Assembly (NCBI GenBank): GCA_964641255.1
Contig: CAZXMM010000001.1
Location: forward strand, 681,795-745,794
DNA from: an uncultured Gammaproteobacteria bacterium
Lineage (GTDB): Bacteria; Patescibacteriota; Microgenomatia; JAMCZE01
Length of the DNA stretch: 64,000 bases
Direction of reading: 5' to 3'
In this document: positions 61,671 through 62,213 of the stretch, piece after piece
How the letters are laid out: every line of letters begins with the position of its first letter
Numbering within the stretch: position 1 is the first letter of the stretch
Made by a program: the position numbers and the translations under genes
The notes under the pieces: model-generated
What the model was told of the DNA's origin: nothing
Seen by the model: the letters and a program-made list of their open reading frames with translations, nothing else
Databases searched by the model: none

Positions 61671-62213
61671 ATGGAACAAAACACAACACCGGCGGAAGCG
61701 AAAAATTGTCCCAAATGTGGAGCCCCGCTAACTGATATTTTAGAAACTCAGACCGGAAAGCAACTGCGCCGCTGCACTAAAAATATCTGGAATAAGGAAA
61801 CCAAGCAAAGTGAGGGTTGTGACTATGTAGAGTGGATTACCCCCGAGCCAAAAACCCTGGATGAGAAATGTCCCAAATGTGGCAGCCCTTTAGTTATGCA
61901 GGTCACCCGCTTTGGCAAAAAAATGAAAAAGTGTTCCACCTCTAGTTGGGATAGTAAAACTAAAACCGCTTCCGGCTGTGACTTTGTCGAGTGGATCAAC
62001 GGCACTACGGAAAAACTGGACGAAGACTGTCCTGAATGCGGAGAAAAATTAGTCCTCTTTACTACCAACGCCGGCAAGAAAATGAAAAAGTGTTCCACTG
62101 CAGGCTGGGATAAGGAAGCCAAAAAGCCCACCGGCTGCACTTATGTGCAGTGGCTCAGTGCTGGGGACCTAATGTTTGACGATCAACCCCCCCCGCCCGA
62201 AGATCCATCGTAA
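61671..62213 (+). CDS. Protein of three tandem topoisomerase-type C4 zinc ribbons
   Basis: Three ~45-aa units: CPKCG..L.....GK....C......W.KETK...GCD(Y/F)VEWI. Confidence 0.6.
   Translation: MEQNTTPAEAKNCPKCGAPLTDILETQTGKQLRRCTKNIWNKETKQSEGCDYVEWITPEPKTLDEKCPKCGSPLVMQVTRFGKKMKKCSTSSWDSKTKTASGCDFVEWINGTTEKLDEDCPECGEKLVLFTTNAGKKMKKCSTAGWDKEAKKPTGCTYVQWLSAGDLMFDDQPPPPEDPS

Follow-up and report, generated by a model that had tools for sequence, protein, structure and literature searches.

A stand-alone protein of three tandem topoisomerase-I-type zinc ribbons with an acidic tail in Microgenomates-group bacteria

Introduction

A 64,000-nucleotide stretch of contig CAZXMM010000001.1 (assembly GCA_964641255.1, positions 681,795 to 745,794 of the forward strand; hereafter, the window), deposited as an uncultured Gammaproteobacteria bacterium and placed by GTDB in the Microgenomatia of Patescibacteriota, carries a short gene for a protein that consists of three tandem zinc ribbons followed by an acidic tail. 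The repeats of this “ribbon protein” are related to the C-terminal zinc ribbons of topoisomerase I (TopA, Top1), and the protein belongs to a family of candidate phyla radiation (CPR) bacteria in the Microgenomates group. By analogy with Escherichia coli TopA and YrdD, it is read here as a stand-alone three-ribbon Top1-type protein that has a flexible acidic tail and probably binds single-stranded nucleic acid; the probability of this reading is put at roughly 60%.

The gene and its three ribbons

The open reading frame (ORF) is complete from ATG to stop at 61671..62213 on the plus strand (stop included), and encodes 180 amino acids with a computed mass of 20.1 kDa and a pI of 6.4. An identical protein is encoded by a called gene on two Logan contigs, one of which is 235 kb long. 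All of the 12 Cys residues fall in three sets (13, 16, 35, and 50; 67, 70, 88, and 103; 120, 123, 141, and 156), making up three tandem C-x2-C-x17/18-C-x14-C units with a period of 53–54 residues and 16-residue linkers between them. The repeats are 35–54% identical to each other, and are invariant not only at the four Cys but also at CP.CG, at Gly-Lys ahead of the third Cys (Cys3), at a Trp five residues past Cys3, and, at the repeat end, at Gly-Cys, whose Cys is the fourth ligand, followed by V.W, giving two invariant Trp residues per repeat. Comparisons of repeat with repeat gave BLASTP E-values in the order of 1e-16 to 1e-23 (1.5e-18, 5.9e-16, and 6.2e-23) and Smith–Waterman z-scores of 18–26 against 2000 shuffles, and the repeats are therefore not a product of chance. 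The ORF of three tandem ribbons with a Pro-rich tail that was proposed in a preliminary description of this locus is confirmed by these results, with some adjustment of its details: the ribbon length given there as about 45 residues is in reality a period of 53–54, within which the core from the first Cys to the Trp after the fourth (Cys4) takes about 43; the signature W.KETK holds in repeat 1 (WNKETK) but not in repeats 2 and 3 (WDSKTK and WDKEAK); and GCD(Y/F)VEWI holds in repeats 1 and 2 but not in repeat 3 (GCTYVQWL).

Ribbon 1 (residues 11–57; 61701..61841, plus strand, as for the other parts) has the pattern CPKC...C-x14-GCDYVEW and a net charge of +2. Its Cys13, Cys16, Cys35, and Cys50 are 99–100% conserved among 159 family members, and it is folded into beta strands in the AlphaFold model, with a predicted local distance difference test (pLDDT) score of about 81–92. 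Ribbon 2 (residues 58–111; 61842..62003), with the pattern CPKC...TRFGKKMKKCS...W...GCDFVEW and a net charge of +4, is the most conserved of the three. Ribbon 3 (residues 112–164; 62004..62162) reads CPEC...GKKMKKCST.GWD...GCTYVQW, has a net charge of +1, and is also modeled as strands. The remaining 16 residues (165–180; 62163..62210), GDLMFDDQPPPPEDPS, form a predicted disordered tail with pLDDT below 50, which is acidic (net charge −5) and indeed rich in Pro as described previously; its DDQPPPPEDPS is a variant of the family motif GEEFLPP(E)P.

Relationship to the ribbons of topoisomerase I

Pfam detects nothing but ribbon models in the 180-residue protein. The top one is PF01396 (Zn_ribbon_Top1), the kind of model (zf-C4_Topoisom) that had been anticipated, with 33.7 bits and an E-value of 3e-8, a small margin above the gathering cutoff of 32 bits. 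The same model was matched at E<1e-3 by 36 of 36 sampled family members, with a best E-value of 1.8e-11. The four-Cys, two-knuckle arrangement of PF01396 is present as three C-x2-C...C...C sets whose Cys are 99–100% conserved throughout the 159 sequences, and the fold is an antiparallel beta-sheet ribbon that superposes on TopA C-terminal domains. Furthermore, a profile of 47 single repeats was aligned by hhalign with a second profile, built from 14 classical ribbons of TopA matches, with a probability of 97.2% and an E-value of 3.4e-11 over 27 columns, from Cys1 to Cys3. Neither a Toprim nor a Topoisom_bac domain was found in the window or upstream of the ribbon gene, as judged from the ORF list and from Pfam searches of the ten largest window ORFs.

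The ribbons are of a variant sub-type. Their second knuckle is C-S-x-x-W-[DN]-x-x-x-K-x-x-x-G-C, not C-s-x-Y-P-x-C as in the classical ribbon, and the difference lies in an insertion of about nine residues between Cys3 and Cys4, which bears a Trp and forms a beta hairpin in the predicted model. An exhaustive search found the same sub-type at the C-terminus of four type IA topoisomerases with Toprim and Topoisom_bac domains: P0148, from a metagenome-assembled genome (MAG) titled ‘Mycoplasma sp.’, has one variant and one classical ribbon, and two variant ribbons are present in each of P0150, P0183, and P0211. These TopA-borne variant ribbons score 35–85 bits on hidden Markov models (HMMs) of the three repeats, against 6–22 bits for classical and YrdD ribbons, and a profile made from the variant TopA C-termini recovers the stand-alone family at an E-value of about 1e-40. 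The variant-ribbon TopAs share with the family both the spacing and the signatures GKKMKKCS...W...TK...GC[DT][FY][VIL]EW, but differ from it in having one or two ribbons on a catalytic core, in belonging to non-Microgenomates lineages, and in lacking the acidic tail motif. Taken together, the Pfam match, the hhalign comparison, and the fusions to TopA cores support the earlier suggestion that this separate protein consists of detached zinc ribbons of the topoisomerase I type.

Two of the fusion proteins have an unusual composition. P0150 and P0211 contain 4–5.7% Trp and 2.5% Gly, with ‘WIWRPSTY’ in place of ‘GIGRPSTY’ typical of TopA; therefore, they evidently come from lineages in which UGA is read as Gly (code 25) and were miscalled with UGA as Trp. 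Their source is probably Gracilibacteria- or Absconditabacteria-like CPR. The two variant ribbons of each of these proteins go undetected by PF01396.

Related ribbons also occur in other contexts. A separate family of about 165–195 residues (P0166, P0170, P0172, P0184, P0190, and P0206) has an uncharacterized N-terminal domain of about 70 residues, one variant ribbon, and a helical C-terminal tail, ‘...WP.EW..GMT..EA..VI...’; outside the ribbon, it is matched by nothing in Pfam or PHROGs. In P0154, of 235 residues, a low-complexity N-terminus precedes three shorter ribbons in tandem, all with ‘GTCDFIEWKN’ at their end, which is another stand-alone multi-ribbon architecture with a related ribbon sub-type.

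Distribution and conservation of the family

A word-indexed search gave 2059 clusters at E<=1e-3, of which the best 120 are all 155–198 residues long and 65–83% identical. Exhaustive HMMER searching of 1.84 billion representatives at 50% identity found only one other full-length representative, P0121, with 62% identity, and the whole family thus lies within roughly one 50% cluster. At least 234 loci were confirmed in reference (species-representative) genomes and at least 223 in metagenomes. All of the informatively named genomes among them belong to the Microgenomates group: Collier-, Gottesman-, Chisholm-, Levy-, Davies-, Shapiro-, Woese-, Roizman-, and Woykebacteria. Many MAG records with the gene are titled ‘uncultured Pseudomonadales’, ‘Gammaproteobacteria’, or ‘Saccharibacteria’, and a few Spirochaetia, Acidiferrales, or Weeksellaceae (loci L010–L089); probably, these titles reflect placeholder or wrong taxonomy, or mis-binned contigs.

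Conservation was measured on the 159 unique sequences recovered from family loci. Three ribbons are kept in 158 of them and exactly 12 Cys in 154. Conservation reaches 97% or more at 60 positions, among them the entire ribbon 2 strand ‘TRFGKKMKKCS’. Among 170 loci, 169 have the ORF intact. Orthologous repeats are 59–75% identical, whereas paralogous repeats are 39–51% identical, and the triplication is therefore older than the radiation. The gene is under strong purifying selection and is no remnant of topA. Across the family, a basic body with a mean net charge of +6 is combined with an acidic tail averaging −4. About 85% of members have the motif GEEFLPP(E)P in this tail, and P173 and P174 are 89–93% conserved. 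In a subset including Collierbacteria, the tail ends in ‘...EDIF’, for example in P0103 (L003, 10001–10528), which resembles the C-terminal tip of single-stranded DNA-binding protein (SSB) but is not identical to it.

Members are automatically named ‘ssDNA-binding Zn-finger/Zn-ribbon topoisomerase 1’ or ‘topoisomerase DNA-binding C4 zinc finger domain-containing protein’ in JGI and NCBI. PHROGs and NCBIfam hold no family-specific model (the top NCBIfam match has 28 bits against a cutoff of 162), and a literature search found no publication on the family; the relevant papers concern YrdD and the structure of TopA. The kind of protein is already known from YrdD and other stand-alone Top1-type ribbon proteins (COG0551). 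The present one is a distinct, Microgenomates-specific family that is not orthologous to YrdD, and is modestly new with its variant ribbon and conserved acidic tail motif.

Comparison with YrdD and TopA, and a proposed function

The nearest characterized analogue is E. coli YrdD, likewise a stand-alone protein of about 180 residues made up only of tandem Top1-type four-Cys ribbons without a catalytic core. The two proteins align ribbon for ribbon at a BLASTP E-value of 1e-6, with 33% local identity only and a 9-residue gap exactly at the Cys3–Cys4 insertion; neither the full-length similarity nor the same type and number of ribbons that would be expected of orthologs is found. YrdD has classical ribbons, which score 180 bits on PF01396 with its positions 2–38 matched three times, and is reported to have four of them; on the repeat HMMs they score 9–22 bits. 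It has no acidic GEEFLPP tail, and is encoded in the E. coli tsaC-yrdD-smg-smf(dprA) cluster, which is absent around the ribbon gene. According to work cited in PMC4678816, YrdD binds zinc and iron, and its binding of single-stranded DNA (ssDNA) depends on Zn.

In E. coli TopA, the zinc ribbons bind ssDNA: aromatic residues in beta3, F616 of D5 and Y728 of D7, stack on bases, and R724 and F725 in the beta2–beta3 turn also contact DNA (PMC4678816). Unlike the stand-alone protein, D5–D7 of this enzyme (PDB 4RUL and 9GDA) are covalently joined to the catalytic core, and their Cys3–Cys4 spacing is about 5, against 14 with the extra Trp hairpin here.

On these analogies, the following mode of action is proposed. 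Each ribbon would hold one Zn(II) between its CPxC and C...GC knuckles and present a basic face of its beta-sheet, with the invariant Lys-rich beta3 ‘GKKMKKCS’ and, in ribbon 2, the Arg-Phe turn. The three ribbons may lie side by side on a short single-stranded nucleic acid at about 3 nucleotides per ribbon, a geometry suggested by analogy with D5–D7 of E. coli topoisomerase I and with YrdD. The acidic tail, which in most members has the motif GEEFLPP(E)P, would most likely dock on a partner protein or fold back on the basic ribbons; docking or self-inhibition is suggested by the combination of a basic body with a conserved acidic tail motif. In this reading, the protein is a lineage-wide housekeeping factor of Microgenomates-group CPR, transcribed alone and outside any operon. 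Judged from the sequence, zinc binding, nucleic-acid binding, and such a role of the tail are most likely.

Several observations weigh against this reading. The PF01396 match spans the first knuckle only, profile positions 1–20 of 39, and the same CPxCG knuckle is also matched by many generic zinc-ribbon models; the short second knuckle of the full-length profile, C-s-x-Y-P-x-C with Cys3-x4-6-Cys4, is not present, the spacing here being 14. No solved structure was matched significantly in sequence searches of PDB with the single protein or with the family profile, in which E. coli TopA ranked first at an E-value of 0.05–0.07. The stacking aromatic residue of beta3 aligns with Lys or Met of ‘GKKMKKC’, and because of the missing aromatic the binding mode, or even the ligand, may differ from those of TopA; the Arg-Phe of the beta2–beta3 turn (‘RFGK’) is kept only in ribbon 2. 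Finally, the gene has no conserved neighborhood that would back a DNA-related role (see below). Nucleic-acid binding, if any, is probably more electrostatic in this family, or may alternatively operate through the invariant Trp residues.

Replacement of SSB was also considered, from the basic body, the acidic tail, and the EDIF ends of some members. This idea is rejected, as canonical SSBs with DD(I/V)PF tips are encoded in three Microgenomates loci (L042, L167, and L168), and the ribbon protein is an all-beta ribbon array with a different tail motif, not an OB-fold.

Genomic neighborhood

In the window, the ATG of the ribbon gene lies 31 bp past the stop of a glucan-phosphorylase-like gene on the same strand, and a gene for a DUF4112 protein lies some 250 bp downstream; only weak consensus matches to promoters and terminators are found by the gene. 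Directly upstream is a cluster for alpha-glucan/glycogen metabolism (about 54451–61639), with a GT5 glycogen-synthase-like gene, two GT4 glycosyltransferase genes, an epimerase, GH57, and the glucan phosphorylase. GH57, glucan phosphorylase, and DUF4112 genes thus surround the ribbon gene here, and unrelated neighbors do so in four other genomes. Indeed, no conserved operon partner was found in five neighborhoods including the window, nor when ORFs within 6 kb were clustered across 90 loci. In the latter set, synteny is limited to sublineages, with gltX upstream and two small ORFs in about 17 of the 90 loci, and genes for RRM proteins (8 loci), DEAD-box helicases (7 loci), and GreA (2 loci) are scattered within 6 kb. 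A canonical ssb gene is located 3–6 kb from the ribbon gene in three loci (L042, 13277–13582; L167, 10236–10736; L168, 4336–4641). The associations with ssb, RRM, and DEAD-box genes are weak and at the level of sublineages.

Far from the ribbon gene, the window harbors a DISARM-like anti-phage cluster at 1386–9017 on the minus strand, consisting of DrmA (1112 residues; 752 bits in PADLOC), a NERD-helicase (570 residues; RTasNERD-Hel, 166 bits), and a DrmE-like protein (851 residues; Pfam DrmE_C, 60 bits). Such a cluster is notable for a CPR genome of about 1 Mb. Beside the defense genes, a 629-residue ORF (9432–11321, plus strand) has a sub-threshold match to the portal protein of phage SU10, 25.8 bits against a cutoff of 30, and may be a remnant of a prophage or mobile element.

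Alternative explanations

The best surviving alternative, though unlikely, is a split topoisomerase I, in which the ribbon protein is the detached C-terminal DNA-binding module of the Microgenomates TopA, cooperates in trans with a ribbon-less core, and docks through its tail on this core or on RNA polymerase. Variant ribbons fused to TopA cores in P0148, P0183, and the UGA-recoded P0150 and P0211 serve as a Rosetta stone for this idea; in two-ribbon TopAs, the first ribbon has its highest score against repeat 1 and the second against repeats 2 or 3, a weak colinearity, and the ribbons of E. coli TopA are required for relaxation and contact RNA polymerase (PMC4678816). On the other side, no topA turned up in the window or when six TopA cores were compared by tblastn with 1.4 Mb and, later, 2.2 Mb of sequence from family loci, and in none of 171 loci is topA adjacent to the ribbon gene. 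A profile of TopA C-termini surfaced no Microgenomates TopA: its matches were all from the stand-alone family, and the proteins used as its query were themselves missing. A full-length TopA profile likewise surfaced none, and returned generic TopAs of Melainabacteria and Alphaproteobacteria. Moreover, E. coli has both a full TopA and free YrdD, so that a free ribbon protein need not mean a truncated TopA, and for this reason the probability of a split enzyme is kept low. Its more specific form, in which the Microgenomates TopA core has lost its ribbons and the three-ribbon protein, recruited by the GEEFLPP tail, supplies ssDNA capture in trans, is slightly less probable still. If a split TopA were true, the ribbon–TopA fusion in other CPR lineages would be an ancestral or alternative state.

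Two further alternatives, both improbable to a similar degree, keep the ribbons but change the ligand. In one, the protein binds RNA and not DNA, for instance as a chaperone of RNA or in association with ribosomes or tRNA. Eukaryotic TOP3beta, which has related ribbons, acts on RNA; this precedent and the missing base-stacking aromatic would fit, as would the RRM, DEAD-box, and gltX genes in the vicinity. However, these gene associations are weak and limited to sublineages, and all of the characterized relatives bind ssDNA. In the other, the protein is an interaction adaptor or a transcription factor whose ribbons bind RNA polymerase or another protein instead of nucleic acid, like ribbons of the TFIIS/TFIIB type and like the TopA C-terminal domain in its contact with RNA polymerase.

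It is far less probable that the repeats are zinc fingers of the GRF type (APE2, NEIL3, and TOP3alpha) and not Top1 C4 ribbons, an idea that comes from the likeness of G-K-K-M-K-K-C...G-C-D-F-V-E-W to GRxFxxC...CxFFxW. The GRF finger is also an ssDNA-binding module of the zinc-ribbon kind, in which a basic strand precedes Cys3 and an aromatic-x-Trp motif follows Cys4. This identity is rejected because the profile comparison and the TopA fusions point to Top1 ribbons; neither a score above threshold on PF06839 or PF23549 nor a GRF-like fold is found. A decaying topA remnant or a chance Cys-rich ORF, for which domain similarity speaks and nothing more, is refuted by the intact ORF in nearly all loci, the 60 near-invariant positions, and the conservation of all 12 Cys, with a glucan phosphorylase gene and not topA ending just before the ATG and no TopA domain found in the window.

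Implications

Apart from the points that follow, this is an ordinary domain protein that is already annotated automatically. Stand-alone topoisomerase-type ribbon proteins are little studied, with biochemical work only on E. coli YrdD. The family defines a ribbon sub-type that is half-recognized by Pfam, in which a Trp hairpin lies between Cys3 and Cys4 and a Lys-rich beta3 replaces the stacking aromatic. It is thereby a compact and tractable candidate for the question of how single-stranded nucleic acids are bound by zinc ribbons that lack the stacking aromatic, and it offers a test of whether the accessory domains of topoisomerase I work in trans. Conservation of this degree, with so many near-invariant positions over many candidate phyla and apparently throughout Microgenomates, is unusual for CPR; being so strong and wide, it suggests that the protein is probably important in these organisms with very reduced genomes.
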